Positions 1-49,134 are shown, counted from the first letter of the stretch. The stretch is 64,000 nucleotides of DNA from Bacilli bacterium (GCA_045601325.1 JAZRZI010000008.1:2961-66960), one strand, 5' to 3'. Notes: generated by a model not told the origin, from the sequence alone. Made by a program: numbers and translations.

Positions 1-74
1 GGGACATTGAAAAGTACTCTATCACACATGACAGAATAAATTCCACAGCTTAATCCCACTATTCTTCCTTGCAT
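1..74 (-). CDS. rsgA: Ribosome small-subunit biogenesis GTPase RsgA/CpgA; only the first ~24 codons are present, and the gene runs off the window start
   Basis: Minus-strand ATG at 72-74 overlaps the pknB stop. The translation MQGRIVGLSCGIYSV... resembles an RsgA N-terminus. The position after stp/pknB is conserved in Firmicutes. Confidence 0.5.
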   Translation of the reverse strand, partial: MQGRIVGLSCGIYSVMCDRVLFNV

Positions 75-958
75 TATTTAAAACCAAATAATCTCGCAAA
101 GAATCCTTTCTTCTCTTTGAGAAGTTCAGGGTGTTCTTTAATTTTAACTAAATCTTGATAAAACTCATTAGCGGTTTTGTAACGCTTACGAGGATCTTTT
201 TCGGTAGCTTTTCTTATAATGTCTTCAATTTGTTTTGGACAATTAGGCAAATATTTTTTAGGAGAAGGTAATTTCTCTTTAATATGAGCAACAGCGACAC
301 TTACAGCATCTTTACCAGTAAATGGAAGATGACCAGTAATTAATTCAAAGAATGTAATACCAGCAGAATAAATATCTGTTTGAGCACTGGCAGGTTTGCC
401 TTTAGATATTTCAGGAGCCATATAGTGAACAGAACCGATAATTTCGTTGCCATTAGAGTTTTGCATTTTGATACCAGAAGATTCAGCGATACCGAAATCA
501 CCAAGCTTAATTGTGCCATCTCTAAGCATAAACATATTTTGTGGTTTCACATCTCTATGTATGACAAATCTACCATGAGCGTATATAAGCGCAGAGGTTA
601 ATTGAATCATCGCACTAATTGCTTCTTCTAATGTCAAAGCCGAACGAAAACCAAGCACATCGCTGAGAACTTGCCCATCAACATATTCAATAACCATATA
701 TGGTTTATTTTCATATGTACCATGGCTATAGATTTGCACAATATTTTGATGTTTTAAAGAAGCCGCAATAGTAATTTCATTGTTAAAACGAGTAAGGTTG
801 ATAGTGTTACTCATTACATCTTCTCTAATGATTTTAATGGCAACCGTATTTTTAGTGATTGCATCATGTGCTTCATACACTTCGGCCATGCCACCATGAC
901 CAATACGGGCTGTTACACGATATCGATCATCTAGATATGTTCCAATTTTAATTGGCAT
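74..958 (-). CDS. pknB: Hanks-type Ser/Thr protein kinase; a short form with no TM or PASTA repeats
   Basis: Shows kinase subdomains (GxGxxAxV-like GHGGMAEVY, VAIK, HRDVKPQN, DFG, APE). The ORF track starts at 1006, but the likely start is the MPIKIG Met at 958, which overlaps the stp stop. Confidence 0.85.
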   Translation of the reverse strand: MPIKIGTYLDDRYRVTARIGHGGMAEVYEAHDAITKNTVAIKIIREDVMSNTINLTRFNNEITIAASLKHQNIVQIYSHGTYENKPYMVIEYVDGQVLSDVLGFRSALTLEEAISAMIQLTSALIYAHGRFVIHRDVKPQNMFMLRDGTIKLGDFGIAESSGIKMQNSNGNEIIGSVHYMAPEISKGKPASAQTDIYSAGITFFELITGHLPFTGKDAVSVAVAHIKEKLPSPKKYLPNCPKQIEDIIRKATEKDPRKRYKTANEFYQDLVKIKEHPELLKEKKGFFARLFGFK

Positions 959-1709
959 GTTTGACCGCCTCCCATAGTACGACGCTAATATTATCTGTTC
1001 CACCATTTGCGTTAGCTAAAGCTATCAATTGCTCGGTCTTTTGAATTGTACTACCAGTACTATTAAGCACGGCAGCAATATCAGTGCTATGCAAATTGTT
1101 ATATAAACCATCTGAACAAAGTAACAATGTATCAGGCACTTCATAATGAACTCTTAAGTCCATATTAGAAGCAGGGAAAATGCCTAAAGCATTCATAATA
1201 ACATTGCGCTTTTCATGCACTTTAGCTTCTTCTTCGGTGATTTGATGTGTTCTTACTAAGTAAGCAACATATGATTGATCTTCGGTGATTTGGTTAAGCT
1301 TTTTATCTTTCATAGAGTAAGCTCTAGAATCTCCAATTTGGCATGTGAAAACTCTATCATCAAGCAATAAAGTAGCAGTTAATGTTGTACCCATTCCTTT
1401 ATAAAAGTCTTTTGTGCAAGATTCATCATAAATAAGCTTATTAGCTTTTTTAACTGCGTGATATAACCATCTATATGCGCTTGTGTGGGTTAGAAACCTA
1501 TCTTTTGACTTGAATGATTCACTTAAAAAGTTGATAGCGATTGTTGCGGCGTATTCGCCTTTGTTTTGTCCGCCCATACCATCACACACGATAAGAAGTA
1601 CATTACCTTGTGAATTGATAAGAGCAGCGACTCTATCTTCATTTGTAAGTCTAACTTTACCAATATTTGTTTGAGCACAATATGTGCCTGCAACTGTCAT
1701 TTGTTTCAT
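948..1709 (-). CDS. stp: PP2C-family Ser/Thr protein phosphatase (Stp/PrpC)
   Basis: Contains DGMGG and DNISVV PP2C motifs. It sits immediately upstream of the kinase and overlaps it. Confidence 0.85.
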   Translation of the reverse strand: MKQMTVAGTYCAQTNIGKVRLTNEDRVAALINSQGNVLLIVCDGMGGQNKGEYAATIAINFLSESFKSKDRFLTHTSAYRWLYHAVKKANKLIYDESCTKDFYKGMGTTLTATLLLDDRVFTCQIGDSRAYSMKDKKLNQITEDQSYVAYLVRTHQITEEEAKVHEKRNVIMNALGIFPASNMDLRVHYEVPDTLLLCSDGLYNNLHSTDIAAVLNSTGSTIQKTEQLIALANANGGTDNISVVLWEAVKHAN

Positions 1710-2749
1710 ATCATTCCCTCACTTTTTGCTTTTAATTGTCCACACGCAGCATCGATGTCGGATCCAAATTCTTTTCTTATTGTAGCGGTTACTCCACCTT
1801 TGGTTAAACAATCTAAAAATGTATGCACTCTATTTCCAGAACTACGTTTATAATCGTTTTTATTTGTTTCGTTATATGGGATTAAGTTAACATATCCCAT
1901 TGTGCCTTTGATTAAAGTAATCAATTCTTCAGCATGTTCTTTTGTGTCATTTAAGTCTTCTAAAAGAAGATATTCGTAAGTTACTCTTCTGCCTGAAATT
2001 TCTTCGTATTCTTTTACCGCTGGCATAAGAACTTCTAAAGGATATGCTTTGTTAACTTTCATCAAGGCATTTCTAAGTTCGTTATTTGGAGCATGTAAAG
2101 AAATAGCTAAATTAGTTTGTAAACCCTCTCTAGCATACTTTTTAATGCCTTCAACAAGTCCACATGTGGAAACAGTGATGTGTCTAGCTCCAATATCCAA
2201 ACCTTTTTGGTTATTAACAATACGGATAAAATCCATAACGTTATCGTAATTATCAAATGGTTCACCAGTCCCCATAACAACGATATGAGAAACGTGTTGG
2301 CCTTTGCCTTCTTCTTTCAAAAGATTGTTAATGACAAGTATTTGCCCCACCATTTCTTCAGGGAGAAGGTTTCTTTGTTTTCCAAGCATACCAGATGAAC
2401 AAAATGAACACGCCATATTGCAACCAACTTGGCTTGACACGCACACTACGCAACCATAGTTATAGCGCATGAGCACACATTCAACCTTTGCGCCATCATA
2501 AAGTTCAAGCAAAAGTTTAATCGTGCCATCTTGACTAACTTGTTTCAAAAATATCTTTGGCAATTCTAAGCAATATTTCTCTTTGAGAACTTCTCTAAAT
2601 CTTAAAGAAATATCTGTCATTTCATCAAACGAAGTGGCTTTCTTTTCATAAATCCAAGTGTAAAGTTGGATAGCACGATAAGGTTTTTGACCTTCGCTAA
2701 CCATTAATTCTTGAAGTTTTTTCATTTCCATTCCGTAGAGATTAATCAT
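1706..2749 (-). CDS. rlmN: Radical-SAM rRNA/tRNA adenine-C2 methyltransferase RlmN
   Basis: Has the CxxxCxxC radical SAM motif (CNMACSFC) and a C-terminal catalytic Cys region. Its genomic context is conserved. Confidence 0.9.
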   Translation of the reverse strand: MINLYGMEMKKLQELMVSEGQKPYRAIQLYTWIYEKKATSFDEMTDISLRFREVLKEKYCLELPKIFLKQVSQDGTIKLLLELYDGAKVECVLMRYNYGCVVCVSSQVGCNMACSFCSSGMLGKQRNLLPEEMVGQILVINNLLKEEGKGQHVSHIVVMGTGEPFDNYDNVMDFIRIVNNQKGLDIGARHITVSTCGLVEGIKKYAREGLQTNLAISLHAPNNELRNALMKVNKAYPLEVLMPAVKEYEEISGRRVTYEYLLLEDLNDTKEHAEELITLIKGTMGYVNLIPYNETNKNDYKRSSGNRVHTFLDCLTKGGVTATIRKEFGSDIDAACGQLKAKSEGMI

Positions 2750-4031
2750 TGCTATCTTTCTCCATATTCAAAGTCTTTCTAAGTCTAGCAAAGTAAAATG
2801 TTGTATCGCTAGAACCGAATGGGAAAAATTGTTTTTCTTCGCACAAAACAAAATTATTGTGGTTAGAAATAAACTTCTTAATCATGTCTCTTCCTTCTTT
2901 AACGTTCAAAGTAGGAACAGCGTATAAAAGTTCACCATTATCTTCCACTAATAAGGAAGCTTCATGCAAAGCGGTTCTTTCTTCGTCTAATATAGAATCC
3001 AAATCTTCTTGTTTAAATCTTAAGAAGTAATCTGGAACAGTTTTGAACGATGCAAAGTTAGAGTTTCTTGGCATTACAATGAAAGTATGAACAGGTTCTG
3101 AAACGCAAGAAATGATGCTTGTTGAATCTTGTTCATAAATTCTCATTTTGTCTAAACCTAATTCTTGCTTTGTCTTTTTTGCATCGAAATAGCAAGAAGA
3201 ATCATTTGTAATCAAATCAAATTTAGCAAATGTTGAAAACTTGTAAATAAGTTTCATATACACATTTGTTCTATATCCTGTAAATACAGCTATGTTTCTA
3301 AAAGGATCGATATCACAGGTATCAATAGCATAACTGAGAGCAGGACTAAATGTTGCAATTAAATTTTCTTTGTACGCTTCGGTATTCTTTAAAGATTCCT
3401 TTTGGGAATACAAAACCATATCGTTAAATTCACATTCTTCAAATTCTGGATAACACGCTAAAAATTCATTTTTATCGTTCTTGCTAGAATTGACGAGCAA
3501 GAATTGTTTTGAAGACTTAGTATTGGCTCTTAATGTTTTATATAAAAGAGATTCTTTGAAATGTTTTCCCCACATTTTAACAAGCCATAAAGGTGTATTA
3601 TATCTTATGGATAAGAATTCATGTGAATTCTCTTTTAAATCAGTAATGGTTAAAAAATCTTTAGTTTTTGATTTTTCTAAAAAGGATTCAAAGTTAACTT
3701 TATTTTCTTCTTCAACCTCATTCAAAAAAGTAGAAGTAATAAATTCTTTTGCAATTTCTTCATTACTGACGTTAATGAATAAACCATTAGCGAGGAAAAC
3801 GAATAAATCATATTTCACTTTTTTAGTGATATTTGGGAATAGTTCATTAATTTTTCTTTCAAAAACATAAAAGTGTTTTAATGAACAACTCACTAAAGAA
3901 GCGATCGAGCGTCTCTCAACGTTAGTGATTTTTTTATCTTTTGCAAAATTTCTTATCGCAATGGAAAAAGAGATGTCTTCATCCACTACTTTGGAAAGGA
4001 TATTTGAACTAAGTGAAAGTAAATTAGTCAT
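2742..4031 (-). CDS. RsmB/Sun-like protein with a NusB-like N-domain but degenerate methyltransferase motifs (likely a pseudo-enzyme)
   Basis: It has a NusB-like N-terminus, an RsmB-like C-terminal tail (FYFARLRK) and the positional equivalent of rsmB. The motif IV PCS and motif VI TCS cysteines are replaced (MPRNSN, AVPT). Confidence 0.5.
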   Translation of the reverse strand: MTNLLSLSSNILSKVVDEDISFSIAIRNFAKDKKITNVERRSIASLVSCSLKHFYVFERKINELFPNITKKVKYDLFVFLANGLFINVSNEEIAKEFITSTFLNEVEEENKVNFESFLEKSKTKDFLTITDLKENSHEFLSIRYNTPLWLVKMWGKHFKESLLYKTLRANTKSSKQFLLVNSSKNDKNEFLACYPEFEECEFNDMVLYSQKESLKNTEAYKENLIATFSPALSYAIDTCDIDPFRNIAVFTGYRTNVYMKLIYKFSTFAKFDLITNDSSCYFDAKKTKQELGLDKMRIYEQDSTSIISCVSEPVHTFIVMPRNSNFASFKTVPDYFLRFKQEDLDSILDEERTALHEASLLVEDNGELLYAVPTLNVKEGRDMIKKFISNHNNFVLCEEKQFFPFGSSDTTFYFARLRKTLNMEKDSND

Positions 4032-4033
4032 AC

Positions 4034-4540
4034 TTATTTGTCATCTGGATCCTTAGGAACGATGCCATCAAAGATGTCACCAGTATAGATTTCATCTTCA
4101 TCATCGCCTTCTTCGTGATGATGGCATTCACAATCATCATCACAATCATCATCATAAGTTTCTTCTTCATCATTATTAAAATCGACAACATTGCTTACGG
4201 TAATATAACGTGGATAATCCTTATTTATTTCCTCATAGCGGTTGTCTTGTAAATAATAATAGAATTCGAGAGATTTATTGATAGCAACTTCGCCAATGCT
4301 AGAAAGAATAAACTTAGCTGCTAAATCTTGTAAAACAGAAACCTTAAGTGGAGCGTGAACATGAATTAAAATGTTCCATGAAGTTTGTTCTACTCCGTTG
4401 TGGAAAATCATATTATTAGGAGAAACAAAGTTAATTTCGTCTTCATCGACTTCGTATAACTTAGCAAGAGAAGGTGTCATCTCTTTTGATAAACGTCCGA
4501 CAATATATTGATCGAGACCATAAAAAATTACTGTAATCAT
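4034..4540 (-). CDS. Hypothetical small protein with an acidic Cys/His-rich C-terminal tail (CDDDCECHHHEEGDDEDE)
   Basis: An ORF with an ATG at 4540 preceded by a GAGG RBS. No recognisable catalytic motifs. It occupies the position where def/fmt normally lie between priA and rsmB. Confidence 0.4.
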   Translation of the reverse strand: MITVIFYGLDQYIVGRLSKEMTPSLAKLYEVDEDEINFVSPNNMIFHNGVEQTSWNILIHVHAPLKVSVLQDLAAKFILSSIGEVAINKSLEFYYYLQDNRYEEINKDYPRYITVSNVVDFNNDEEETYDDDCDDDCECHHHEEGDDEDEIYTGDIFDGIVPKDPDDK

Positions 4541-4588
4541 AAGAATACCTCGCCAATTATTGTAATACAAAAATATATATTTTTAAAA

Positions 4589-6784
4589 TTAAAAATTATA
4601 TGGATCGATATTTATCTCTAAATTAAGATTAGATTTGCCTGAAAATAAAGTAATCGCTTTCTTTAAAATTTCACGAGCGAAATCGTTATCTTTATATTTC
4701 ACAAATATGACTCTAAGATGTAAATCTCTATCCCTTGAAACATATGGAGTTGTTGGTCCTAAAATTTGACCTTTATCTAAAAAATTATCCGCTAAAAAAT
4801 CCGCCATATCGAGAGATTGTTGAATCACTTTCTCTTCATCCTTTCCGGATATTACTGCACTGGCTAAATAAGTATAAGGTGGGTAAGACTGGATTTTTCT
4901 CATACTCATTTCTTTTCTATAGAATAATTCATAATCTTGTCTAGCTGCCAAGGTAATAGCGTAGTGAGAAGGGTTATATGTTTGAATGATGGCTTCACCT
5001 TTTTTGTTTTTCCTTCCACTTCTTCCGACCGCTTGAGTAATTAATTGAAATGCTCTTTCACTGCTTCTATAACTTGGCATAGATAAACCAATGTCAGCTA
5101 AAACAATGCCCACTAAAGTTACATCAGGAAAATCGTGGCCTTTTGCAATCATTTGTGTGCCAATTAAAATATCAGCTTCCTTTGTTCTAAATGATTCGAT
5201 TATAGAAGGTATTTTTGTTCTTATTTTTGCAGAATCGCTGTCGAGTCTTAATGTTCTAGCTTCTGGGAACAATCTATGAATTTCATCTTCAATACGTTCC
5301 GTGCCAAATCCAGTTTTCATCAAATATTTAGAACCACATTCTGGACAAACTTCAGGCATCTTTTCAACATAGTCACAATGATGACATTTAAGCATATTAT
5401 CAGTTTTATGGTAGGTTAATGCAATTCCACATGTAGGACACTTAAATATATGGCCGCATTTCCTGCATGAAACATTGGTGGAAAAGCCTCTTCTATTGAT
5501 CAATAAAATCGCTTGTTCACGATTGGACAAAACACGTTGAATTGATTCTCTGAGTTTCTTTGAGAAAATATAAGAATCCCTATCTATATTGTTATAATCT
5601 TGCAAATTTACAATGGTTGTTTTTGGTAGTTCTTGATTATTAACACGTTTTTTTAATTTGAGAAAATGATAAACGCCTTTTTGCGCTCTTGCTCTAGATT
5701 CTAGCGAAGGTGTTGCACTGCCCAAAAGCACTTTTGCATTATGCATAACGCCACGCATGATAGCCACTTCTCTAGCATGATAAAAAGGAGAAACATCTTG
5801 TTTATAGGATTCGACATGTTCCTCATCTAAAATAATAAGTCCTATATTTTCTAGAGGTGCAAATATCGCGCTTCTAGCACCGACAACAACCCTGCATTCA
5901 CCTTTAGCGATTTTACGATATTCATCATATTTTTCCGCAGGAGTTAATTCGCTATGTAAAATAGCAACGTTGCCTTGGAAACGTCTAATACAATATTCCA
6001 TCATCATAGGAGTTAAAGAAATTTCAGGAACAAGCATCAAAACACTTTTTCCCTCTCTTAAAACCTTTTCCGATAAGTTTAAATAAACTTCCGTTTTGCC
6101 ACTTCCAGTAACACCTTCAAGTAAAAATACTTTATCACTCGATTCTTCAAATTCTTTAATAACACTAAGCTGTTCGTCCGTTAAAGGAGGTGGGGTGATG
6201 TATTCATAGTTTGGAATTGCTAACCTGCGTTTTTCCTCTTTAACTATTTCAATTCTTCCGTACTCAATTAATTTTTCAACAACAGAAGGAGAACCAACTT
6301 CACGTTTAAGAACCTTCCCTTCATTAGAAATTAATCTAAGTATTTCTATTTGTTTTGATGTTAAATCATTTTCATCATTATCCTTAATAACGAGATATTG
6401 ATCATACGCAACTTTTGGAGCTTTCAATGACGAATGCCTTGGCGATAAGGAAGGCGGTAACATAGATTGAAGAACGCTAATTTTAGGAGCGAGATAATAT
6501 TCTGCAACTTGATTTGATAACGCTAGCAAATCATCATTTAGTAATGGGGTTTGATCTAAAACATCAGAAATTTCACCAATGGTAAAACCAAGTTCATCTT
6601 CAAGCTGTTCTTTACTCTTATCAATTTCCTTTGTTGAGACAACATAGCCCATTACTTCACGTTTATGAAAGTTGAGCAAAACCCTGTATCCAGGTCTAAC
6701 TATTTTACTCCCAGAGTACGTGTAAGAAAAAGGACGATTCAAGGAGTAATTTGCATATTCAATTAATACTTCTATTACAAGCAT
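4589..6784 (-). CDS. priA: Primosomal protein N' (PriA helicase)
   Basis: Carries Walker A GVTGSGKT, a DEEH box and the Cys-rich zinc-binding insert (CRKCGHIFKCPTCG...CHHCDY...CPECG). Confidence 0.9.
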   Translation of the reverse strand: MLVIEVLIEYANYSLNRPFSYTYSGSKIVRPGYRVLLNFHKREVMGYVVSTKEIDKSKEQLEDELGFTIGEISDVLDQTPLLNDDLLALSNQVAEYYLAPKISVLQSMLPPSLSPRHSSLKAPKVAYDQYLVIKDNDENDLTSKQIEILRLISNEGKVLKREVGSPSVVEKLIEYGRIEIVKEEKRRLAIPNYEYITPPPLTDEQLSVIKEFEESSDKVFLLEGVTGSGKTEVYLNLSEKVLREGKSVLMLVPEISLTPMMMEYCIRRFQGNVAILHSELTPAEKYDEYRKIAKGECRVVVGARSAIFAPLENIGLIILDEEHVESYKQDVSPFYHAREVAIMRGVMHNAKVLLGSATPSLESRARAQKGVYHFLKLKKRVNNQELPKTTIVNLQDYNNIDRDSYIFSKKLRESIQRVLSNREQAILLINRRGFSTNVSCRKCGHIFKCPTCGIALTYHKTDNMLKCHHCDYVEKMPEVCPECGSKYLMKTGFGTERIEDEIHRLFPEARTLRLDSDSAKIRTKIPSIIESFRTKEADILIGTQMIAKGHDFPDVTLVGIVLADIGLSMPSYRSSERAFQLITQAVGRSGRKNKKGEAIIQTYNPSHYAITLAARQDYELFYRKEMSMRKIQSYPPYTYLASAVISGKDEEKVIQQSLDMADFLADNFLDKGQILGPTTPYVSRDRDLHLRVIFVKYKDNDFAREILKKAITLFSGKSNLNLEINIDPYNF

Positions 6785-6801
6785 ATTATTTCCTTATCGT
6801 C

Positions 6802-7380
6802 CTATTTGACTTCTGCGATTTTTGTTTTAATGATATCCGCTATTTGTTTAGCTGCTTTTTTAACTTGTGCATTTATAACAACGTAATCATAATATTTAGA
6901 CATTTCCATTTCTCGAGCGCCCTTTGCTAATCTTTTTTGGATTACTTCTTCTGGCTCACTACGACGATGCCTAATTCTATATTCAAGAGCTTTTAAACTA
7001 GGTGGCATAAGGAATAATGATACAACTCCAGGATCCTTAACTTTTTCAAGAACCTGAGTTGCGCCATTGATTTCTATTTCTAGAAAGACATTTTTACCTT
7101 GGTTTCTTAATTCTTCAACTTTGTCTTTTGGAGTGCCATAACAATGTCCGACAAATTCAGCATGCTCTAAGAAATTATCCTTAGCAATATTTTCATCGAA
7201 TTCTTTCTGGCTCACAAAGTAATAATCAACACCATTTACTTCTTTATCTCTAGGACTTCTAGTTGTCATAGAAATAGAGTACACAAAATCTATGCTCTTA
7301 TCTTTTAAGAGCTCACGTCTCACAGTGCCTTTTCCAACACCTGATGGTCCGCTAAGAATAATTAATAAACCTTTTTTCAT
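6802..7380 (-). CDS. gmk: Guanylate kinase
   Basis: P-loop GPSGVGKGT, GMP-binding signature, ~190 aa. Confidence 0.9.
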   Translation of the reverse strand: MKKGLLIILSGPSGVGKGTVRRELLKDKSIDFVYSISMTTRSPRDKEVNGVDYYFVSQKEFDENIAKDNFLEHAEFVGHCYGTPKDKVEELRNQGKNVFLEIEINGATQVLEKVKDPGVVSLFLMPPSLKALEYRIRHRRSEPEEVIQKRLAKGAREMEMSKYYDYVVINAQVKKAAKQIADIIKTKIAEVK

Positions 7381-7480: not shown

Positions 7481-8854
7481 ATGAAATACAGTTTTGCAGA
7501 TTTTAAAAAAATAGTTTGTCTAATCAAAGAAAATATAATAGACAACCATGTCTCAAGCATAACAGTAATCAACTCACATGACATATTGTTATCTTTTTCG
7601 TTATATAGAAAAGCAAGACTTTTTATATCTCTAAATCATCAAAAGCCATTCATAGCATTTACAAATAATAAAGAAAGTTTCGTAACAACTATAGGACAAT
7701 TAAATGACACCCTGAGAAAAGCATTGAAAGACGCTTACATTACAGGAGTTGATATATTAAATGATGATAAGATATTGAAGGTTAATTTTGAAAAATCAAA
7801 TGATTACTTTGAAAAAGTCAAAAAGTCTTTAATTATTGAACTAATCCCACACAAACAAAACTTAATAATTTTAAACGAAAATGGAATAATTGAGTTTGCA
7901 ATTCACAACACAAGTATCGATGTGTCTAGACCGATTGCGAAAGGGCTTTTATATCAGTTGCCTAATAAAAGCGAAAACTATGTAGAAGATACACCGATGA
8001 GTGAAAATCAGTTATCAAGTTTAGTTGCAAAATATATTGAAACTGCAAAAGAGACTAAACTTAAAGAAAGATATAATGATCTGTTCAAATTTATAAAAAG
8101 CAAAATCAAATCGTTTAATAACAAAATAGAAATATTAAACAAAGAAATAATTTCAGCTAAAAATAATCTCATTTACCAAGAACACGCAAATATGATGTTG
8201 GCTTTAGCGAATGATAAAGAAGAATTAGAAAACTATTTTAATGCAAATTCAATAACCTACGATTCAAATTTCTCTATCGGACAATACGCAAACATATTAT
8301 TCAAAAAATATAAAAAAGCTAAAAGAACAATAGAGATAGATTCTTATGAAATTTCTAAGACCGAAGACCAAATTTATTCACTTAATTTAATTCTAAAACA
8401 AGTTCCATATATGGATGATGAAGACCTATACAATTTAGCGTTAGAAATGATGCCACACAAATTTAAACAGTTGCCTAGAAAAAATCCTAAAACTATATTT
8501 AGCTATATCAATATAGAAGGAGTTAAAATATATTTCGGAAAATCAAGCAAACAAAACGAAGAATTAACATTTAAATTTGCACGAAATAACTATAGTTATT
8601 TCCATATTAAAGATTATCATGGTTCGCATGTAATTGTTGCAAGCGAGCAGTTAACTAATAATATAATTTTAACAGCTTGTGAATTGTGTTTGTTGTTATC
8701 TGATAAAACTACAGGCGACATCATGTATACGCAAGTAAAAAATGTCAAAAAAGGTGATTCGCCAGGCCAAGCTTTAATGACTAATTACAAATTGATCACA
8801 TTAAGAGAAATTAGATTAACGACCATCGATAAACTAAAACATTATCAAAAGTAA
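7481..8854 (+). CDS. rqcH: NFACT-family RqcH/FbpA-like ribosome quality-control protein (short form)
   Basis: N-terminal NFACT-N-like region, central coiled coil, and a DUF814/NFACT-R signature YHGSHVIV near the C-terminus. Confidence 0.6.
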   Translation: MKYSFADFKKIVCLIKENIIDNHVSSITVINSHDILLSFSLYRKARLFISLNHQKPFIAFTNNKESFVTTIGQLNDTLRKALKDAYITGVDILNDDKILKVNFEKSNDYFEKVKKSLIIELIPHKQNLIILNENGIIEFAIHNTSIDVSRPIAKGLLYQLPNKSENYVEDTPMSENQLSSLVAKYIETAKETKLKERYNDLFKFIKSKIKSFNNKIEILNKEIISAKNNLIYQEHANMMLALANDKEELENYFNANSITYDSNFSIGQYANILFKKYKKAKRTIEIDSYEISKTEDQIYSLNLILKQVPYMDDEDLYNLALEMMPHKFKQLPRKNPKTIFSYINIEGVKIYFGKSSKQNEELTFKFARNNYSYFHIKDYHGSHVIVASEQLTNNIILTACELCLLLSDKTTGDIMYTQVKNVKKGDSPGQALMTNYKLITLREIRLTTIDKLKHYQK

Positions 8855-26708: not shown

Positions 26709-27311
26709 ATGAACTTTGAATTAATACTAGCAACATCTAACAAACATAAAGTCCAAGAGGTAAGAAAAATATTATCTCCACACGGTATAATTGTATATGG
26801 TTTAAATGATTTAAACCTTAAACCAGAGGAAGTAATTGAAGATGGCGTTACTTATCAAGCTAACGCTCTAAAAAAGGCCCAAAGTGTGCAAAAACTAACT
26901 TCTATGCCAATCATCGCTGATGATTCAGGTATTGAAGTAGAAGCTTTAGATAATAAACCAGGTTTGCATTCTGCAAGATTTGCGGAAAGCGAAGGTGGCT
27001 ATATTAATGCGATGAATAAAATCATCAAAGCCACAAAAGACAAAAACAATAACAATGCAAGATTTGTTTGCGACATCGTTTTATTAAATGTTGACGAAAA
27101 ACCACTATTATTTGAAGGCATAGCTAACGGGCACATCAAAAATGAAATAATTGGTGATTCCGGATTTGGATATGACCCTATATTCTATTACGATGAATTA
27201 GGCAAAACTTTTGCAGAATTAACTGAAGATGAAAAAAATAAAGTCTCGCACAGAGCAAGAGCTTTAAAGAAATTATTAACTTATCTTAAGATTAATCAAT
27301 TAATCAAGTGA
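26709..27311 (+). CDS. rdgB: Non-canonical purine NTP pyrophosphatase (RdgB/HAM1)
   Basis: ILATSNKHK and FGYDPIF motifs. Confidence 0.85.
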   Translation: MNFELILATSNKHKVQEVRKILSPHGIIVYGLNDLNLKPEEVIEDGVTYQANALKKAQSVQKLTSMPIIADDSGIEVEALDNKPGLHSARFAESEGGYINAMNKIIKATKDKNNNNARFVCDIVLLNVDEKPLLFEGIANGHIKNEIIGDSGFGYDPIFYYDELGKTFAELTEDEKNKVSHRARALKKLLTYLKINQLIK

Positions 27312-28363
27312 CGATAACGTTTAAGAATAGTTTTAAATGCTAAGTGAAAAATCATACAGACTAATCCACCTAGTAAAAATACACCTGCGCCTATGAGAAA
27401 ATACATAGACCAGGTTTTTTCTTTAAAGAAAATGAATGAACAAATAAGACCGGCGGTAAATAAATAAAAGACAATAAATAATGGCAAAGAACCACGTGAT
27501 GCTTTGTAAATACCAATATTATTAGGGTAGATATTATTGGAAATAATTTTAATATGTTTTGCTTCTTCATCTAGTGTCGCGTTAACAACTTTAGTTGGGT
27601 TTCGTTTTGGCTCTTCATCGTTTCTTGCAATCATTGCCTTGCCTAATGCATTAAAACCAACGAATTTATAAGTAAAGCCTTCCATAGTTGGTTGTTTCTT
27701 TTCTAGATATCGTTTTGATTTTTCAACATCATCGATAATATCTTGGTGATATTTTTCTACTTCCTTGCTAACTGAATTAGGATCTAATTTTTGCATTGAA
27801 AGCTCATATAACGCTAATAAAGATTCTCTTGCCTTTAAAAGTTTGTGATTCTTCTCAAAATAGAGTTTTAAACAATCTGCGTCATAGAAATATGATCTAT
27901 ATGAAAGCTTCTTATAAACAAGATACTCGTATTCATCTAAACCAATAGAACATTTGTTCATAAATAAGAACAATGAGTTCAAGTCCGACATTTTAGAAAA
28001 ATAAGATGCGTAATCATTTCCTAACATTAAAGTAAATTCTTCAAATCTATCTCTTCTAAGAGTGGACATGTATAAGAGAGATAAAAGTCTACCGAATCTA
28101 GCTTCTATAGATTCTGGATCAAACGCTAAAATATTAGCAAACATTTCATATGCTTTACCATAATCTTTAACACCATAAAGAATCTTTTTTGCTTTAACAA
28201 CTTTGTTGTGAAGCATAGTTTCATAGTTAGAAATAGCTTCACCAGTGGTGAGTTCGGCCATACAATGAGGGCAATAACAAACCTTTGCAGAACTATTCAC
28301 ATCAAAAATTGCGTTGGTGAATTCTTCAGGATGACAATGTGTACAATAACCTTTTTTAAGACT
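27296..28363 (-). CDS. Hypothetical protein with an N-terminal zinc ribbon, a helical repeat region and a C-terminal double TM
   Basis: CTHCHPEEF...CYCPHC, with two hydrophobic helices at the C-terminus. No enzymatic motif found. Confidence 0.35.
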   Translation of the reverse strand, partial: SLKKGYCTHCHPEEFTNAIFDVNSSAKVCYCPHCMAELTTGEAISNYETMLHNKVVKAKKILYGVKDYGKAYEMFANILAFDPESIEARFGRLLSLLYMSTLRRDRFEEFTLMLGNDYASYFSKMSDLNSLFLFMNKCSIGLDEYEYLVYKKLSYRSYFYDADCLKLYFEKNHKLLKARESLLALYELSMQKLDPNSVSKEVEKYHQDIIDDVEKSKRYLEKKQPTMEGFTYKFVGFNALGKAMIARNDEEPKRNPTKVVNATLDEEAKHIKIISNNIYPNNIGIYKASRGSLPLFIVFYLFTAGLICSFIFFKEKTWSMYFLIGAGVFLLGGLVCMIFHLAFKTILKRYRHLIN

Positions 28364-28367
28364 CATA

Positions 28368-29054
28368 CTAAAATACCGGTGCAAAAACTATTAGACCATA
28401 AACGATAAGGAATTGGCCTACTAAATATGTAATCATGATTGGAAGATCTCTTCTTCTAAAATCATGGACGTAAGTTGAGATGATAACAAGCACATCACTG
28501 ATGAAGAATAAAACATAGCCCACTAATAACATAATGCTAGCAAAGAATTCATCTCCACCTTTAGGTGCATTCTTAATAACTAAATAAACTGTAGAACCAA
28601 TTAATGCGACTAAAAGAAACATATAGAAGTTTCCTTCTAATGTAGGTAATCCACACATTTTGTGATTGAAAATAAATAGAATTAAAGATAACGCAATAAT
28701 GACTCCAAATCCAATGAGATACATAGTCACATTAGTGCATTCAAGAATAAATCTATTAATTGCAAAGAAAAGACATAGGTGTCCAATTAAAAATAAAGTT
28801 GTTCCAATAAAATAACTTGTTTTCTTGTGAACTTTAATAAGGAAAAAGTCACCGACACACGCTAAATAGAAAGGAATATATACAAGCGGATTAGAAGGGA
28901 CAGCAATAGTTAACGCAACCGCTAAAAATAAAACGCAAAAAGGTTTAGTAAACTTTTTAAGTTTTTCTTTTTCGAATAAGCAGAACATAATGTGCACTAA
29001 GGCATATGCTCCGAATAGTGTGAATAGAATCAATATAGGCAATTCGAGTTTCAT
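28368..29054 (-). CDS. YhhN-family (lysoplasmalogenase-like) membrane protein
   Basis: Polytopic, with conserved GD, GH and SD positions (CVGDFFL, LIGHLCLF, FISDVLV). Confidence 0.5.
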   Translation of the reverse strand: MKLELPILILFTLFGAYALVHIMFCLFEKEKLKKFTKPFCVLFLAVALTIAVPSNPLVYIPFYLACVGDFFLIKVHKKTSYFIGTTLFLIGHLCLFFAINRFILECTNVTMYLIGFGVIIALSLILFIFNHKMCGLPTLEGNFYMFLLVALIGSTVYLVIKNAPKGGDEFFASIMLLVGYVLFFISDVLVIISTYVHDFRRRDLPIMITYLVGQFLIVYGLIVFAPVF

Positions 29055-33046: not shown

Positions 33047-34723
33047 ATGAAAAACGAACAAAATAACAATGTAAAAGTGCTATGCACAAAAAAGATTCAA
33101 CCTAAAAAAATTGAACCAACAACTAAAAATAAGAAGAAAAAGAAGAAACATATATTTGGAAAAATCCTCCTTACATTTTTCATCGTTTTTATTGTTTTAC
33201 CAATTGGTTTAGTCTATGCATTATGTTACACAAATAAATGGGAAGACATTAAAGCTACCGATGAGACCACTGAAGAAATATTTAATAGAATAAAAGTTGA
33301 TTCACTAGATTACTCAACATCCGCATATAATCCAAGAGTACAATTGAGATTAACTCAAGATGATTTGAATGGATTTTTAAAGCAATACACACAAGAATTC
33401 ACAACCGATAATCCTTTGATGAAATTTGTAAATAATTTCTATATCAAGATCGAGGACAACCAATACGAATTCGTTTTTGAAATAAAAACAAAAATTTTCT
33501 GTACAAAGCTAATCTTACAAGCTGAATTCCAAGAAATAGGTAATAGAGAAGATTACACAAAATCATATTTTGATTTTAAAATAAAAACATTAAAAGTTGG
33601 AAGATTATCAGGATTTGATGCATTGATTATCAAATTAGTAAATTCTGAAACAATCACATCTTTCTTTAATGATGCAGGCATAAGTGCACAAGTCGATTTA
33701 GAAAATAAAGAAATCAAATATTATGAAAAAGATTTAATCGAAGATATAAAGAAGCAAGAAGGCTTTGAAGATGATGATTTATACTTTTCTGTTGTCAATG
33801 ACGCTTTGCAAAGAAGAATGCTTAAGTTCGATTTTAACAGCGATAATTCGTTAACAGTTTCAGCATCTTTGAAAGATATGAAATATAACGATACTTATTG
33901 TGATCATAATAAGGAATTGGGTTACAACTTTTCCGAGAAAAGAGAAATGGTTGTTCAAGCCCTAAATGAAGGCATTATAAACGAAGATAACGCAGGAAAC
34001 TTATTTGATTATCTAATTCATGGTTATGAATTTGCTAAACAAGATAATACAGTTAGAATGCAATTTACAGGTGACATTTTTAAAACTCTTGGTATCGATG
34101 ATGTCGCAACATACGAAGGATATGAAAAAATCAGTATTTTAAACCATGATTATGCAACACTTGATAGCAGGATTGCAAATTCAGTAGATCCAACTAATTT
34201 AGCAACAGGTGGAGTCATTGCCTCGCTTAATGAAAATGACATTAATAACTTTATTCGTGCTTCTGAAATGATTGGCGTAAAATCTCTATTTATGAGAAAA
34301 ACAAGCGAAACAGAATGGAAAGCAAATTATGTTGCTATTAATGATTTCTATTGTGACATCGTAGATAATGGCGTCAATTATGTTGTAGGCATTGATATCA
34401 ATGGTTATAACACAGTTCTAAGTTTTGTCACTACTTTTGAAAATATTGAAGGTTATAAATTAAGTTTTAATACAGACAAAGTTTACTATGGCAATACAGA
34501 AGCAACCGAATCAATGAAAATTGTTATCTTAAGCATATTAGAAAGTGCAATTAACGCGGATGCCACTATGGGTGTTGAAATAGTAAATAACCATTTCATA
34601 TTTGATTTTGCTTCGGGTATTGAAGAAAGCGGGTATGGAAATTATATTGATCCATCGAGAGGAAGAATCGAAGTAAAAGATTCCACTGATGGCAATGGTA
34701 GAATTAATTTCCTACTGAATTAA
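33047..34723 (+). CDS. Membrane-anchored hypothetical protein with a Lys-rich cytoplasmic N-terminus and a large extracytoplasmic domain
   Basis: A poly-K stretch, a single N-terminal TM, and no recognisable motifs. Confidence 0.35.
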   Translation: MKNEQNNNVKVLCTKKIQPKKIEPTTKNKKKKKKHIFGKILLTFFIVFIVLPIGLVYALCYTNKWEDIKATDETTEEIFNRIKVDSLDYSTSAYNPRVQLRLTQDDLNGFLKQYTQEFTTDNPLMKFVNNFYIKIEDNQYEFVFEIKTKIFCTKLILQAEFQEIGNREDYTKSYFDFKIKTLKVGRLSGFDALIIKLVNSETITSFFNDAGISAQVDLENKEIKYYEKDLIEDIKKQEGFEDDDLYFSVVNDALQRRMLKFDFNSDNSLTVSASLKDMKYNDTYCDHNKELGYNFSEKREMVVQALNEGIINEDNAGNLFDYLIHGYEFAKQDNTVRMQFTGDIFKTLGIDDVATYEGYEKISILNHDYATLDSRIANSVDPTNLATGGVIASLNENDINNFIRASEMIGVKSLFMRKTSETEWKANYVAINDFYCDIVDNGVNYVVGIDINGYNTVLSFVTTFENIEGYKLSFNTDKVYYGNTEATESMKIVILSILESAINADATMGVEIVNNHFIFDFASGIEESGYGNYIDPSRGRIEVKDSTDGNGRINFLLN

Positions 34724-39900: not shown

Positions 39901-41337
39901 TTAATATGCCTTAGCAAATAAAACAACTTTTGTAGCTTTTTTGCCACATACTGGACAGGTGACATCAAAAGAAATTTGATTGAATGGAATGCATCTAGCA
40001 GTAGCGTTAGTCAATTCCTTAATCTTATCTTCACATTCTTGATCGCCACACCACATCATCTTAGCGTAGCCACCTTTTTCTAATGCAGCATTTAATTCTT
40101 CTAAGTTATGAATTTCTGTGACGTGATCTAATAAATATCTATATGCCTTTTCATACATTGCTTTGTGAATTTGTGGGATTAATTCATTAATCTTATCCAC
40201 CATTTCTTCTTTTTTAACAGTAATTTTTTCACCATTGTAACGTGTAGCAATAGTGACGTTTCCTGCTTCGATATCTCTAGGGCCAATTTCAATTCTTAAT
40301 GGAACGCCTTTCATTTCATATTCAGCAAACTTCCAACCAGGAGATTTATCAGATTCATCTAATTTAACTCTTAAGCCAGCATCTTTAATCATCTTAGCTA
40401 ATTCTCTAGCAGCAGGAATAACACCTGGTTTTTGTGCCGCTACAGGAATAACAACAGCTTGGATAGGTGCGACATATGGAGGTAAGGATAAACCATTATC
40501 GTCGCCGTGAACCATAATGATAGCGCCGAGTAATCTAGTAGAAACACCCCAAGATGTTTGATGTGGATGTGCTAATTTTCCATCTCTTCCTTGGAAGGTG
40601 ACACCAAAGGCTTCCGAGAAGCCAGTACCAAAATAGTGAGTTGTGCCAGATTGTAAACCTTTTCCGTCAGGCATTAAAGCTTCAATAGAATAAGTTTCCA
40701 TTGCCCCAGCAAATTTTTCTTTTTCAGTTTTTCTACCTTTAACGAAAGGAATAGCAAGTAAATCTCTGCCACAATCGTCATAGATTTCTAACATTCTTAA
40801 AGCTTCTGTTCTAGCTTCTTCTTCAGTTTCGTGCATTGTGTGGCCTTCTTGCCATAAGAATTCAGCACCTCTTAAGAATGGACGAGTTGTCTTTTCCCAT
40901 CTCACCACAGAACACCATTGGTTATAAAGTTTTGGTAAATCTCTATATGAAGAAATGATTTTTGCGTAATGTTCGGTGAATAATGTTTCACTCGTTGGAC
41001 GGATAATAAGTGGGTCTTCAATAGGAGCGCCACCACCAATATTTGCCACTAAGCATTCAGGTGCAAAGCCTTCAACGTGGTCCTTTTCTTTTTGAAGCAA
41101 AGATTCAGGAATAACAGTTGGCATGTAAACATTTTCATGACCAGTTTCTTTAAATTTCTTGTTCAAATATTCTTGAATTTGTTCCCAAATGGCATAACCA
41201 TAAGGTCTATAAATGATAAAGCCTTTAACAGAACTATAATCCATTAATTCAGCTTTTTTACAGACGTCAGTATACCATTGTGCAAAGTCATCTTCTTGAC
41301 GTGTAATGGAATCATTTTTAATTTGATTATTTCCCAT
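39901..41337 (-). CDS. proS: Prolyl-tRNA synthetase (archaeal/eukaryote-like form with a C-terminal zinc-binding domain)
   Basis: Class II aaRS motifs, no INS editing domain, and a C-terminal CPVCGKK zinc motif. 478 aa. Confidence 0.9.
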   Translation of the reverse strand: MGNNQIKNDSITRQEDDFAQWYTDVCKKAELMDYSSVKGFIIYRPYGYAIWEQIQEYLNKKFKETGHENVYMPTVIPESLLQKEKDHVEGFAPECLVANIGGGAPIEDPLIIRPTSETLFTEHYAKIISSYRDLPKLYNQWCSVVRWEKTTRPFLRGAEFLWQEGHTMHETEEEARTEALRMLEIYDDCGRDLLAIPFVKGRKTEKEKFAGAMETYSIEALMPDGKGLQSGTTHYFGTGFSEAFGVTFQGRDGKLAHPHQTSWGVSTRLLGAIIMVHGDDNGLSLPPYVAPIQAVVIPVAAQKPGVIPAARELAKMIKDAGLRVKLDESDKSPGWKFAEYEMKGVPLRIEIGPRDIEAGNVTIATRYNGEKITVKKEEMVDKINELIPQIHKAMYEKAYRYLLDHVTEIHNLEELNAALEKGGYAKMMWCGDQECEDKIKELTNATARCIPFNQISFDVTCPVCGKKATKVVLFAKAY

Positions 41338-41339
41338 AT

Positions 41340-43088
41340 TTATACTCTCCTTGACGCGACAATCGCGATATCGTTTAATTCTTTCATTCTCTTTTCGCTA
41401 ATAGGCATAACCATTTCGCTGCTAGGTCCATTAGTATCACTAGACACTAAGTTAATACCAGATTGGATAATGATATCCACGAAATGTCTAGTCGGTATGT
41501 CGGTAACAATAATCGGTTTATTGTATCTTTGTAAGCTAGCAATAATGCTGTAATAAGAATGGGTAATAGAATTCATTCTTTCTTTAGTCTTAATATTTAC
41601 TGCTTTGACCACAAAGTAATCAAACTCATTATTTATTTTACTGTCCAATAATAATGTTTTGTCGCTTATAGAAAGCGCCAAACCATAACCAAGATTATGC
41701 AACTCTTTTAATTTATTTACAACCAAATCTATCTCAGAAGCGTTATCGCAAACTTCCTGTTCATCAAATAAGAGGATTAAATCAATCTTATTGACAGTTT
41801 GAATTTGTGATAATACATTAGCGATATGGTCGGTAGCAAACATACTTGCTTCCACAAACAAAGATGCTCCATTTGTTCTATCGCTAGCACTGAATACAGG
41901 GACAATTTGACGTTCAATATAGTCCAGTAATTCTCTGCTTCTTCCATATTTAGAAGAGTATTTCATAATTTCATTGAAGTTATTAAAAATAACTTTTGAA
42001 CCATTAACATATGAGAAATATCCTAAAATACGTTTATTAAAGCAATCAACGATAGGTCTATATGTAATAGAAAGGTGTCCACCTTCTAAAATAGCATCGA
42101 TATTTTGAATGTAATTTTCACTTTGAAGTACGACTCTAGATGATTTATCAAATAGGAAGTAATCGCAATCAGTCAATTGTTGAGCATGAATGCTAACTTG
42201 TTCTGCTTTTTCTAATAAACTATTAAAATCATGGTAATATTGAGCGTTTTGGACAATGCCAACACCAAAGTGAATAGAGCTACCATTGGAATCTTTTCTA
42301 AGTTCTTTCTTAATAGCATCCACTATCGAAATAGCTAATTGAACAGCTTCATCACTGGATGCAATTTGCATATCAAATAAAACGAGTTCATTAGTGTTAA
42401 CCTCAAGAATCTTTCTATTTGCTCTTTTATGAGTGGCGAAAGAACAAATTGTGTATTTTAAACGAGTGTATAAATATTGTTCGGCAACATCGGTGACTGT
42501 AACTCTATTTCCTAAATAGGAAAAACGAATTGCAAATGTATATCCTTTTATGGACTTCATGGTGTCAAATTCGGATGAAATATCACTTCTTGAAACAATA
42601 CCCATATCGGATTTATTAGTTTTCTTTTTAGTTTCATAGTTTGAAATAGATGCTATGTGTTCACTTTGAAGAATAATCTTTCCGGTAAGCTTATCGTAGT
42701 TAACTACTTTTAATAAAGTACGCGTAGAATTCTTTCTGTTGTCATTTAAAACGTCAATTTCAAGGAAAGGAGAAACTTCGTTATTAGAAATCTTATCAAC
42801 CCATTCCTTAAGTTTTGTAACTTGAGATTCCACTGCTAAAGCGTAGAAGGAAGTTAAAGACATAGTTTGTTTGTTAGCTAGATCAGACAAGCTAAAAGTA
42901 GTAACTGAATTTTCTCGTTTATCAATGATGAAAATAGAATAACTTCTATTCTTAACAGAAACACTTTTGTTTTTTCTTCTTTCTAAACCACTACCAACAC
43001 CAAAAGATACAATCATTCCGAGTATGAAAAGAACCACCAATAAGGTAACAATAGCTAGGGTAAGAAATACAGGGTTAGTAAAATCCAT
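41340..43088 (-). CDS. Membrane-anchored protein with degenerate GGDEF-like and EAL-like domains (both catalytic signatures lost)
   Basis: N-terminal TM. The EAL-domain core YRPIVDC...ILGYFSYV is recognisable with EAL replaced by FSY and DDFG replaced by SISD. The GGDEF tail SIHFGVGIV is present, but the signature position reads NELVLF. Confidence 0.5.
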   Translation of the reverse strand: MDFTNPVFLTLAIVTLLVVLFILGMIVSFGVGSGLERRKNKSVSVKNRSYSIFIIDKRENSVTTFSLSDLANKQTMSLTSFYALAVESQVTKLKEWVDKISNNEVSPFLEIDVLNDNRKNSTRTLLKVVNYDKLTGKIILQSEHIASISNYETKKKTNKSDMGIVSRSDISSEFDTMKSIKGYTFAIRFSYLGNRVTVTDVAEQYLYTRLKYTICSFATHKRANRKILEVNTNELVLFDMQIASSDEAVQLAISIVDAIKKELRKDSNGSSIHFGVGIVQNAQYYHDFNSLLEKAEQVSIHAQQLTDCDYFLFDKSSRVVLQSENYIQNIDAILEGGHLSITYRPIVDCFNKRILGYFSYVNGSKVIFNNFNEIMKYSSKYGRSRELLDYIERQIVPVFSASDRTNGASLFVEASMFATDHIANVLSQIQTVNKIDLILLFDEQEVCDNASEIDLVVNKLKELHNLGYGLALSISDKTLLLDSKINNEFDYFVVKAVNIKTKERMNSITHSYYSIIASLQRYNKPIIVTDIPTRHFVDIIIQSGINLVSSDTNGPSSEMVMPISEKRMKELNDIAIVASRRV

Positions 43089-43299: not shown

Positions 43300-43592
43300 T
43301 ATATTTTAAAAAAATATGATAATCTAATTTAGTAAAGCTACGAAGGAAACAAGTACACTATTCCTCTGCTAGATAGAGATGACTCGGTTGGTGAAAGAGT
43401 TATAGCAAGAATTTGTGGAATACATTCTGGAGCTGCTTCCTGAAATTAAGTAGGGATAGACGGGTTAGCCCGATATAGCTAGATGTGCACTGCACACACT
43501 AAGGAATAACTCGTGAGGGTTATTTAAAATGAGGTGGTAACACGATACATTCGTCCTCTGTAAAGAGGACTTTTTATATTTTTAGGAGGGAA
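43300..43592 (+). promoter_or_regulatory. T-box riboswitch leader (Tyr specifier) controlling tyrS
   Basis: A UAC specifier candidate in AAGUACAC; the conserved T-box sequence aaTGAGGTGGtAACACG; a terminator cgtcctct-gtaa-agaggac followed by TTTTT, just upstream of the RBS aggaggg. Confidence 0.7.
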
Positions 43593-46123: not shown

Positions 46124-46942
46124 ATGGTCGTATTAAAAGCAATCGGAAGATTCTTCGCCAAGATTGGTCGTTGGATCAGAGACACAGCATGGGTTCAACC
46201 ATTATTAATTGTTGGCGGTATCTTTGCAATTATCTTCTCTATCCCACCAATTACAAAAGCTATCAAAAACGCTAATAAAGAAAGCGATGCTGCATTAGCA
46301 TATTACAAGAAAAATGCATTAAGCTGGAAAGGCGTCGAAAAAGATGGCGTTAGCTGTGATGTTGAAAAATTATTTGCTTATCTTGAAAACCCTGATGATC
46401 CAAATAATAAAACATACGCTAATAAATTTGGTCGTAAATTCTTTGTGAACTTTGTCCAAGAAGGCTGCACAGGCTGCAAATCAAACTACTATGGTTTCAA
46501 AACAGCACAAGACAACTGGGGCAAATCTGAATTTGCATTCGAGGGCGAAAAAGAAGCATTCAAATCTTACAGCATCTTTATTGATGCAGAAGATGATGAC
46601 GATGAAATTTGCTTCACAAAATACATTTCTGGTAACAAAGCAAGTGCTGAATACAATGACATCTTCCAAGATGCAAGTGATATTCAAACTCCATATAAGG
46701 ACAACGTAGGCGGTGGAGATTCATATTATGAATCATTATTCTCAGAAGAAAATACATTCCAATCTCCAACATGCTTCTTAGTTGACTTAGATGGTCCTGG
46801 TTATACATCTACATTCGGTATCTCTGAAATCTTCTTCGAATTCAGCGGAAAAAATGGAGATAGCACAGCATGGGGCAAAGCAAGAACAGTTTGGGATTGT
46901 TGGAACCACCAAGGTATCTTCTCAGTTGATTACAAAAAATAA
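46124..46942 (+). CDS. Membrane-anchored extracytoplasmic thioredoxin-like CxxC protein
   Basis: N-terminal TM, followed by FFVNFVQEGCTGCK (a thioredoxin-fold CxxC context). Confidence 0.45.
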   Translation: MVVLKAIGRFFAKIGRWIRDTAWVQPLLIVGGIFAIIFSIPPITKAIKNANKESDAALAYYKKNALSWKGVEKDGVSCDVEKLFAYLENPDDPNNKTYANKFGRKFFVNFVQEGCTGCKSNYYGFKTAQDNWGKSEFAFEGEKEAFKSYSIFIDAEDDDDEICFTKYISGNKASAEYNDIFQDASDIQTPYKDNVGGGDSYYESLFSEENTFQSPTCFLVDLDGPGYTSTFGISEIFFEFSGKNGDSTAWGKARTVWDCWNHQGIFSVDYKK

Positions 46943-48160: not shown

Positions 48161-48162
48161 CA

Positions 48163-48711: not shown

Positions 48712-48712
48712 A

Positions 48713-49075: not shown

Positions 49076-49134
49076 GTTCTTATTATAAAATATTTTTATC
49101 TCAATATATATCACTTTGTGATAAGATAAAATAT

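Follow-up and report, generated by a model that had tools for sequence, protein, structure and literature searches.

The 64,000-nucleotide stretch of Bacilli bacterium DNA analysed here (GCA_045601325.1 JAZRZI010000008.1:2961-66960, hereafter the window) carries at 2742-4031, on the minus strand, a gene for a protein of 429 residues related to RsmB, the 16S rRNA methyltransferase that forms 5-methylcytosine (m5C) at position 967. The alignments showed that the catalytic cysteine residues and the loop binding S-adenosylmethionine (SAM) have been lost from this RsmB-like protein, and yet its gene is intact and under purifying selection in related species. With moderate confidence, we read it as the positional descendant of rsmB, now a pseudoenzyme that would be retained for a non-catalytic role.

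Catalytic and cofactor-binding positions of the RsmB-like protein

The relation to RsmB was investigated by profile and fold comparison. The NCBIfam RsmB model (NF011494) aligned with residues 6-398 at E=3.6e-17 and 62.3 bits, below its cutoff of 319, and the protein also remained below the other curated cutoffs (TIGR00563, 38.8 bits against 269; PF01189, 24.4 against 27). Across ten family members, PF01189 matched eight and PF22458 six. The AlphaFold2 (AF2) model of the protein exhibited a predicted local distance difference test (pLDDT) value of 87, the N-terminal domain being also of high confidence. Its best Foldseek matches in the PDB were the E. coli Fmu/RsmB structures 1sqf and 1sqg (TM-score 0.77 over about 445 columns, E about 1e-21, 16% identity), followed by PH0851, Nop2, NSUN4 and RsmF. 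The match to 1sqf and 1sqg extends over both domains, the helical N-terminal one and the methyltransferase one, in agreement with the initial annotation, which had described an RsmB-related protein keeping a NusB-like N-domain. The relation is seen only by profile and fold methods, since phmmer found nothing significant among PDB sequences (best relevant match 2yxl, E=0.14) and tblastn of the window with E. coli RsmB did not detect the gene. By profile and model, the protein is thus RsmB-related, with a predicted full two-domain architecture.

Two reference sequences, E. coli RsmB and P0150 (NCBI HHU28859.1), a canonical relative, were aligned to the window protein, and they also anchored a family alignment of 202 distinct members. 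In motif VI, the E. coli T-C375-S is replaced by V-P-T, exactly as had been claimed. In motif IV, D-A-P-C325-S is replaced by M-P-R-N-S, with an asparagine in the cysteine column and the proline shifted by one; the reported change of PCS to PRN was right about the lost cysteine and one residue out of register. Inspection of the two motifs, which the initial annotation had proposed as a check, therefore found both cysteine residues absent from the window protein. The loss of SAM motif I was also correctly recognised: C-A-A-P-G-G-K-T has become T-G-Y-R-T-N-V-Y, and across the family the G258/G259 loop is gone, with Asn, Ser or Asp in place of the two glycine residues.

The same replacements extend over the whole alignment. 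No member has a cysteine at position 375 (0 of 202), where Pro (66), Asn (32), Tyr (31) and Asp (23) are found among other residues, and the 16 members with a cysteine at position 325 all belong to one subclade. D277 of motif II is replaced by Val, Thr, Cys or Ala and D322 of motif IV by hydrophobic residues throughout the family; none of the acidic SAM and cytosine ligands of motifs II, III and IV is kept, and hydrophobic residues stand in most of their places. An alternative conserved cysteine was not present in the methyltransferase domain in the 202-member alignment. Among the positions that were kept, T374 and E379 are invariant, P147, P333, G366 and Y370 nearly so, and F387 is also retained; most of them are probably core or structural positions. 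At the level of sequence, the catalytic loss is a state of the family and not a private lesion of the window protein.

Formation of m5C uses the motif VI thiol as nucleophile, an established mechanism summarised in PMC4510066. Since this thiol is required and is absent in all 202 members, the family would not be an m5C methyltransferase, and the window protein is predicted to be unable to make m5C. Binding of SAM by the family appears very unlikely. We also considered that the protein might still be an enzyme with relocated residues, whether a methyltransferase that has diverged or some other catalyst, dependent on SAM or not. The invariant and nearly invariant positions, the persistence of some pocket-lining residues and the motif IV cysteine of the 16 members could be read in this sense, but the missing motif VI thiol, the lack of any substitute cysteine in the catalytic domain, the replaced glycine loop and acidic ligands and scores far under the curated cutoffs make continued catalysis very improbable.

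Distribution, selection and ancestry of the family

A word-indexed search returned ten relatives of the RsmB-like protein, with 25-38% identity, and at E<=1e-30 a full HMMER profile search recovered 265 cluster representatives. Among the GTDB species genomes scanned, 60 species carried the gene, all represented by uncultivated metagenome-assembled genomes of the 'Bacilli bacterium' type, from the rumen, from horse, human and chicken gut, from groundwater and from lakes. One family member belongs to Candidatus Onthovivens merdipullorum, and one locus lies on a contig of 1.33 Mb. These habitats and the small contigs or genomes fit the reduced-genome Bacilli orders described in PMC10868615. No description of the family was found in the literature on inactive or pseudo RsmB and on RsmB in Mollicutes.

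The open reading frame is intact, with 400-460 codons, in every species sampled. Between closely related species (13 pairs), the ratio of nonsynonymous to synonymous substitution rates (dN/dS) was 0.03-0.11, indistinguishable from the values of PriA (0.02-0.09), RlmN (0.01-0.08) and protein X (0.03-0.11), encoded in the same loci. The initial annotation had proposed a catalytically dead protein retained in the priA...cpgA block, and the motif loss together with purifying selection bears this out. With its catalytic residues lost and purifying selection in 60 species, the family is, judged from its sequences, a pseudoenzyme. A decaying, functionless relic is scarcely credible: the gene is the fastest-evolving of its operon, as a relic could be, but the intact reading frames, the 265 cluster representatives, the confident predicted fold and above all the dN/dS values, which effectively refute the idea, all stand on the other side.

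The ancestry of the gene is indicated by P0150. Of the top 148 cluster representatives, it alone is a canonical RsmB, with the motifs CAAPG, DAPCS and TCT. In the related organism that encodes it, the gene order is rsmB-rlmN-PP2C-kinase (296 residues)-rsgA-rpe-TPK. Since a canonical RsmB is found in the same slot, the inactive protein occupies the ancestral rsmB slot and would be a positional ortholog turned pseudoenzyme. We also observed that the short kinase of the P0150 organism is a single gene of 296 codons on one contig (L070, 13032-13921), and is in two pieces of 74 and 209 residues on a near-identical one (L071, 13032-13922); the split is probably an assembly frameshift.

A different origin would be a neofunctionalised paralog, in which an intact rsmB persists elsewhere in the genome and this duplicate took over the old locus with a new function, for instance a NusB-like one exerted through the helical N-domain. 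The retention of this domain at high model confidence and the strong divergence from canonical RsmB (16% identity to the E. coli protein) are compatible with such a history, and the rsmB search reached only the window and the neighbourhoods of the loci. Against it, the gene sits in the exact rsmB slot, which in a relative holds canonical RsmB, and a second rsmB was found neither in the 64-kb window by tblastn nor within 10 kb on either side of more than 60 loci. Duplicates are moreover uncommon in small reduced genomes such as these (PMC10868615), and the related Mollicutes have lost RsmB altogether on several occasions (PMC4014445). No NusB was found among the unannotated small neighbour genes in relatives. 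We regard the paralog as distinctly unlikely and retain the positional descendant of rsmB as the favoured origin.

The family also concerns annotation. NCBI calls most members hypothetical, but P0007, P0139 and P0279 carry the names '16S rRNA C967 or C1407 C5-methylase', '16S rRNA (cytosine967-C5)-methyltransferase' or 'sun protein'. In view of the missing catalytic residues, these methyltransferase names are very likely wrong, and annotators should be warned of m5C967 methyltransferase names on members of this family.

Gene string, neighbouring proteins and the positions of def and fmt

The GC content of the window is about 32%, and its genes follow the standard genetic code. Positions 1-7380 are a tightly packed string of minus-strand genes, gmk-priA-X-rsmB-rlmN-stp-kinase-rsgA, where rsmB stands for the RsmB-like gene. 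The genes of the string, together with two further genes of the window discussed below, are:

1-73, minus strand: rsgA/cpgA (30S assembly GTPase), first 24 codons, cut by the window edge
74-1006, minus strand: Hanks-type Ser/Thr kinase without transmembrane segment or PASTA repeats (Pkinase, E=1.1e-55)
948-1709, minus strand: Stp1/PrpC-type PP2C phosphatase (NF033484, 248.5 bits, above the cutoff of 230)
1706-2749, minus strand: RlmN radical-SAM rRNA/tRNA methyltransferase (TIGR00048, 409 bits, above the cutoff of 290)
2742-4031, minus strand: putative RsmB-derived pseudo-methyltransferase, 429 residues (NF011494, AF2 and Foldseek, motif tables, dN/dS)
4034-4540, minus strand: protein X, 168 residues, isoelectric point (pI) about 4, DUF1904/MIF-tautomerase-fold domain and acidic tail
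4589-6784, minus strand: PriA replication-restart helicase (TIGR00595, 606 bits, above the cutoff of 230)
6802-7380, minus strand: Gmk guanylate kinase, at the head of the apparent operon (PF00625, E=8.9e-50)
48163-48729, minus strand: RsmD, intact (TIGR00095, 141.9 bits, above the cutoff of 117.5)
49135-49680, plus strand: peptide deformylase Def, intact, between ylbF (minus) and rnjA (plus) (TIGR00079, 123 bits, above the cutoff of 104)

The order rsgA-pknB-stp-rlmN-rsmB-X-priA given by the initial annotation was found, with all genes on the minus strand. The translated rsgA fragment, MQGRIVGLSCGIYSVMCDRVLFNV, corresponds to the RsgA N-termini of two relatives (L004 and L008), and all related loci have RsgA Pfam domains after the kinase. 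The stop codon of X lies 2 nt ahead of the start codon of the RsmB-like gene, which overlaps rlmN by 8 nt, and rlmN in turn overlaps stp by 4 nt. By consensus matching, the sole strong promoter-like site was located upstream of gmk (7417-7390, TTGACA-16-TAAAAT, 11 of 12 matches), and the scan showed no terminator-like site inside the string. Upstream of it, the divergent RqcH/NFACT gene occupies 7481-8854.

The order gmk-priA-X-rsmB-rlmN-stp-kinase is kept in all complete loci of the 60 GTDB species with two kinds of exception: priA is missing from this position in three loci, and in one subclade a gene for 735 residues stands between X and the RsmB-like gene (L042, 7690-9897; also L039, L059 and L061). 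The inserted product has a hydrophobic N-terminus, looks secreted and interrupts an otherwise universal adjacency. The corresponding order in B. subtilis is gmk...priA-def-fmt-yloM(rsmB)-yloN(rlmN)-prpC-prkC-cpgA-rpe-thiN. The window and the related loci share with that block gmk...priA...rsmB-rlmN-stp-kinase-rsgA-rpe-TPK and rpmB on the opposite strand, and differ from it in that X replaces def-fmt, the kinase has neither transmembrane segment nor PASTA repeats, and RsmB is apparently dead.

The kinase matched the PASTA kinase model NF033483 over positions 1-273 of 563 only (346 bits against a cutoff of 450) and showed no hydrophobic segment (maximum KD19 1.28). The absence of transmembrane and PASTA modules was thus correctly described, whereas the length of 310 residues was probably overestimated: an ATG at 958, with a GGGAGG ribosome-binding site 8 nt upstream, is the likely true start and would give 294 residues. 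On the numbering used for the window, the kinases of 53 relatives all have 307-313 residues, and all 53 (L001-L069) share the C-terminal tail KEKK(G/S)FFARLFGFK, encoded in the window at 74-120 on the minus strand. Possibly the tail takes the place of the transmembrane and PASTA module and serves in membrane association or docking. Absence of PASTA repeats would fit a reduced or absent peptidoglycan in the lineage (PMC10868615), although a PgeF-like protein, with a score below its cutoff, is encoded in the window. Like PrkC, PknB and Stk1, the protein combines a Hanks kinase domain with a PP2C phosphatase partner, but it differs from them by lacking the transmembrane helix and PASTA repeats and by its basic and aromatic tail. 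Together with protein X, which is highly conserved, this PASTA-less kinase with its conserved tail constitutes a lineage marker in poorly known small-genome Bacilli.

Protein X contains DDDCDDDCECHHHEEG. Its homologs, all unnamed, form 795 clusters with 60-78% identity and a median pI of 4.3. In the model, residues 1 to about 100 form two beta-alpha-beta units with pLDDT of about 90 and the remainder is disordered. The top Foldseek matches were the DUF1904 structures 4m1a (E=3.7e-6) and 1u9d, with TM-scores on the target of 0.77 and 0.65, followed by MIF and D-dopachrome tautomerases. The DUF1904 profile PF08921 reached E=1.4e-3 and 19.4 bits on the window protein, below the cutoff of 24.1, and matched 23 of 38 homologs at E<=0.01 (best 3e-6). 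X begins with Met-Ile-Thr and all homologs with M-I-T or M-I-I, so that Pro1 is absent and X is not a canonical tautomerase. The segments YGLDQF, FHxGxEQTSW, EFYYYSQDNRY and YPRYI are conserved, as is IYTGDIF after the acidic linker. X thus shares with DUF1904 (PF08921; 4M1A, 1U9D), of the MIF/4-OT tautomerase superfamily, the N-terminal 100 residues or so with their two beta-alpha-beta units; its own features are the missing Pro1, an extra disordered acidic tail of 50-70 residues, IYTGDIF and a variable Cys/His insert.

In the initial annotation, X was described as an acidic protein of 168 residues with a CDDDCECHHH tail in the def/fmt position. The protein is present there, but the motif proved to be a variable insert and not a defining feature. 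In the window, the Cys/His-acidic stretch reads DDDCDDDCECHHH, and its DDDCECHHH insert is encoded at 4085-4150 on the minus strand (residues 131-152 approximately), within the acidic linker. A DDDCxCHHHH insert occurs in about one third of close homologs (P0160-P0226; CxC in 35 of 120), in some of them at the extreme C-terminus (P0197, P0226). From these comparisons, the insert is a real, clade-limited and mobile module that resembles a metal-binding one. Two other readings of X were rejected. A degenerate Def or Fmt is at odds with the tautomerase-like fold. A tail that serves PriA in the manner of the SSB C-terminal peptide is at odds with the DIF motif, which does not lie at the extreme C-terminus, and with the loci without priA, in which X also stays with the RsmB-like gene.

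The close association of X with the RsmB-like gene raises the possibility of an adaptor or regulatory subunit that binds X, RlmN or the Stp/kinase pair and no longer acts on rRNA. X lies directly upstream in nearly all loci, with the 2-nt gap seen in the window, the rlmN gene overlaps on the other side, and the sequence of X (60-78% identity) has been conserved much better than that of the RsmB-like protein (25-38%). The acidic-to-neutral pI of the family is unlike that of a typical RNA binder, and inactive methyltransferase paralogs that activate or scaffold their partners offer an analogy. After partial correlation of evolutionary distances, modest residual values were obtained for the kinase (r=0.46) and Stp (r=0.32), but mirror-tree signals are weak and partly saturated at such divergence and these two correlations are uninterpretable. 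With X the partial r was only 0.13, so that no specific co-evolution between X and the RsmB-like protein was detected by this approach, and with RlmN it was -0.21; the 735-residue gene that separates the two in one subclade also argues against a dedicated pair. An adaptor is an unlikely explanation, though the main rival of the role proposed below.

The window Def keeps the motifs GVGLAAIQ, EGCLS and HEYDH, and tblastn with E. coli Def matched 49171-49626 on the plus strand. Its context, coaD-rsmD-ylbF (minus) / def-rnjA-maf (plus) at 47693-51997, recurs in nine lineage relatives from metagenomes (L072-L082) with intact GxGxAAxQ, EGCLS and HExDH motifs, all ten copies being intact. The initial annotation had def 'relocated' to 49135; the gene does lie outside the priA block, but its context is conserved in the lineage and it is catalytically intact. 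As the same context and intact motifs recur in the nine relatives, the position is a stable, selected arrangement and not a simple relocation. In B. subtilis, defB (ykrB) also lies near rnjA (ykqC). RsmD, encoded next to ylbF, is the methyltransferase that forms 2-methylguanosine at G966, which adjoins the RsmB target nucleotide.

The reported absence of fmt from the window was confirmed: tblastn with E. coli Fmt gave no match in the 64 kb, in more than 60 loci of priA and the RsmB-like gene or in 11 lineage def loci. Neither fmt nor def was found within 10 kb of priA in 60 or more loci, and in the metagenome Def scan a def-fmt pair was seen only in one distant organism, with 33% identity. In E. 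coli, def can be inactivated only when fmt is inactivated too, and the two genes were lost together in Mollicutes (PMC4014445). Since def is intact, formylation is probably kept, with fmt likely encoded elsewhere in the genome.

Other features of the window were also observed. A T-box leader (43331-43561, plus strand, 118.8 bits) immediately precedes the gene of a class I tRNA synthetase of the TyrRS type (43597-44814, plus), and a second tRNA-synt_1b protein of 327 residues, likely TrpRS, is encoded at 54401-55384. The prolyl-tRNA synthetase at 39901-41337 (minus) has a ProRS-C_1 C-terminal domain, which marks the archaeal/eukaryote-like enzyme and not the typical bacterial type. An open reading frame of 1535 codons at 59300-63907 (minus) has essentially no Pfam match, apart from a borderline TRAP_beta-like one at residues 867-950 (E=8.7e-5). 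No or sub-threshold Pfam matches were also obtained for proteins of 582 residues (41340-43088, minus, with a weak EAL-like match at E=3.5e-4), 558 residues (33047-34723, plus), 362 residues (27296-28384, minus) and 272 residues (46124-46942, plus).

Proposed role and comparison with known systems

The retained role would be a non-catalytic one that canonical RsmB already had. Most likely, the protein would bind 16S rRNA precursors and help or check maturation of the 30S head and P-site, beside RlmN and RsgA. Our best guess, binding to rRNA or pre-30S particles as an assembly chaperone or checkpoint, is proposed by analogy with Nop2, DIMT1L and WBSCR22 and from the operon context. The structural or RNA-binding role suggested in the initial annotation would likewise be drawn from precedent. 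The Nop2 protein, and not its m5C, is required in ribosome biogenesis (PMC4510066), and for DIMT1L and WBSCR22 presence is required and not activity (PMC4472018).

Several points weigh against this reading. The N-terminal domain showed no Pfam NusB match in the window protein or in the family members tested. The family is mildly acidic, with a median pI of 6.2 and a net charge of -4, where two canonical RsmB proteins have pI of 7.2 and 8.0, and the net-charge test gives no support for RNA binding. The RsmB-like protein evolves fastest in the operon, with a mean distance of 1.38 against 0.52-1.0. Knockouts of rsmB in E. coli have a mild phenotype, so that any strong need for the protein apart from catalysis would have been gained in this lineage. 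The search for a second rsmB covered the window and 10 kb on either side of the loci, and the presence of fmt is deduced from the intact def.

A more elaborate scheme, which we hold improbable, would join X and the inactive RsmB in a lineage-specific module that replaces def-fmt-rsmB and rewires 30S P-site maturation or initiation. In this scheme, m5C967 and any other RsmB would be missing, the inactive protein would be an obligatory chaperone or checkpoint of 16S helix 31 (h31), and X, likely trimeric, would regulate it or mimic its ligand, possibly under control of the soluble kinase and phosphatase.

For the pseudoenzyme itself, the wider interest lies in function without catalysis. Bacterial rRNA methyltransferases are usually seen as dispensable fine-tuners. 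Methylation-independent assembly functions, such as those of Nop2, Dim1 and Bud23, are hard to separate genetically from methylation, and here evolution would have separated them. A clade of Bacilli from gut, rumen and groundwater keeps under strong selection an RsmB predicted to be incapable of m5C formation, which points to a non-catalytic RsmB function and offers a clean natural experiment on such roles of bacterial rRNA methyltransferases. This pseudoenzyme clade is new within a known family and a known operon, and expected from eukaryotic precedents.

Compared with RsmB/Fmu/Sun (E. coli b3289, 1SQF/1SQG; YloM in B. subtilis), the two-domain fold, the length of 429 residues and the slot upstream of rlmN-prpC-prkC-cpgA are the same. 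Motif matches to the E. coli protein persist, NTPxWL corresponding to HPSWL, PD to HPD and GGxLxY...T....KE to GGTLVYATCSVLPEE. The differences are the absence of the motif VI cysteine, usually also of that of motif IV, the loss of AAPGGKT, the hydrophobic residues at D277 and D322 and the mildly acidic character. The KsgA/Dim1 family (DIMT1L, WBSCR22/Bud23, mtTFB-type) likewise contains rRNA methyltransferases selected for a non-catalytic role (PMC4472018, PMC2614427), but it is another methyltransferase family acting at another rRNA site. Yeast Nop2, human NSUN1 (p120) and NSUN4-MTERF4 share the methyltransferase fold (Foldseek matches 4-8 and 18-19); these are active proteins with both cysteine residues, and eukaryotic or mitochondrial large-subunit factors, whereas the family described here is bacterial and its loss of catalysis would be natural and permanent.

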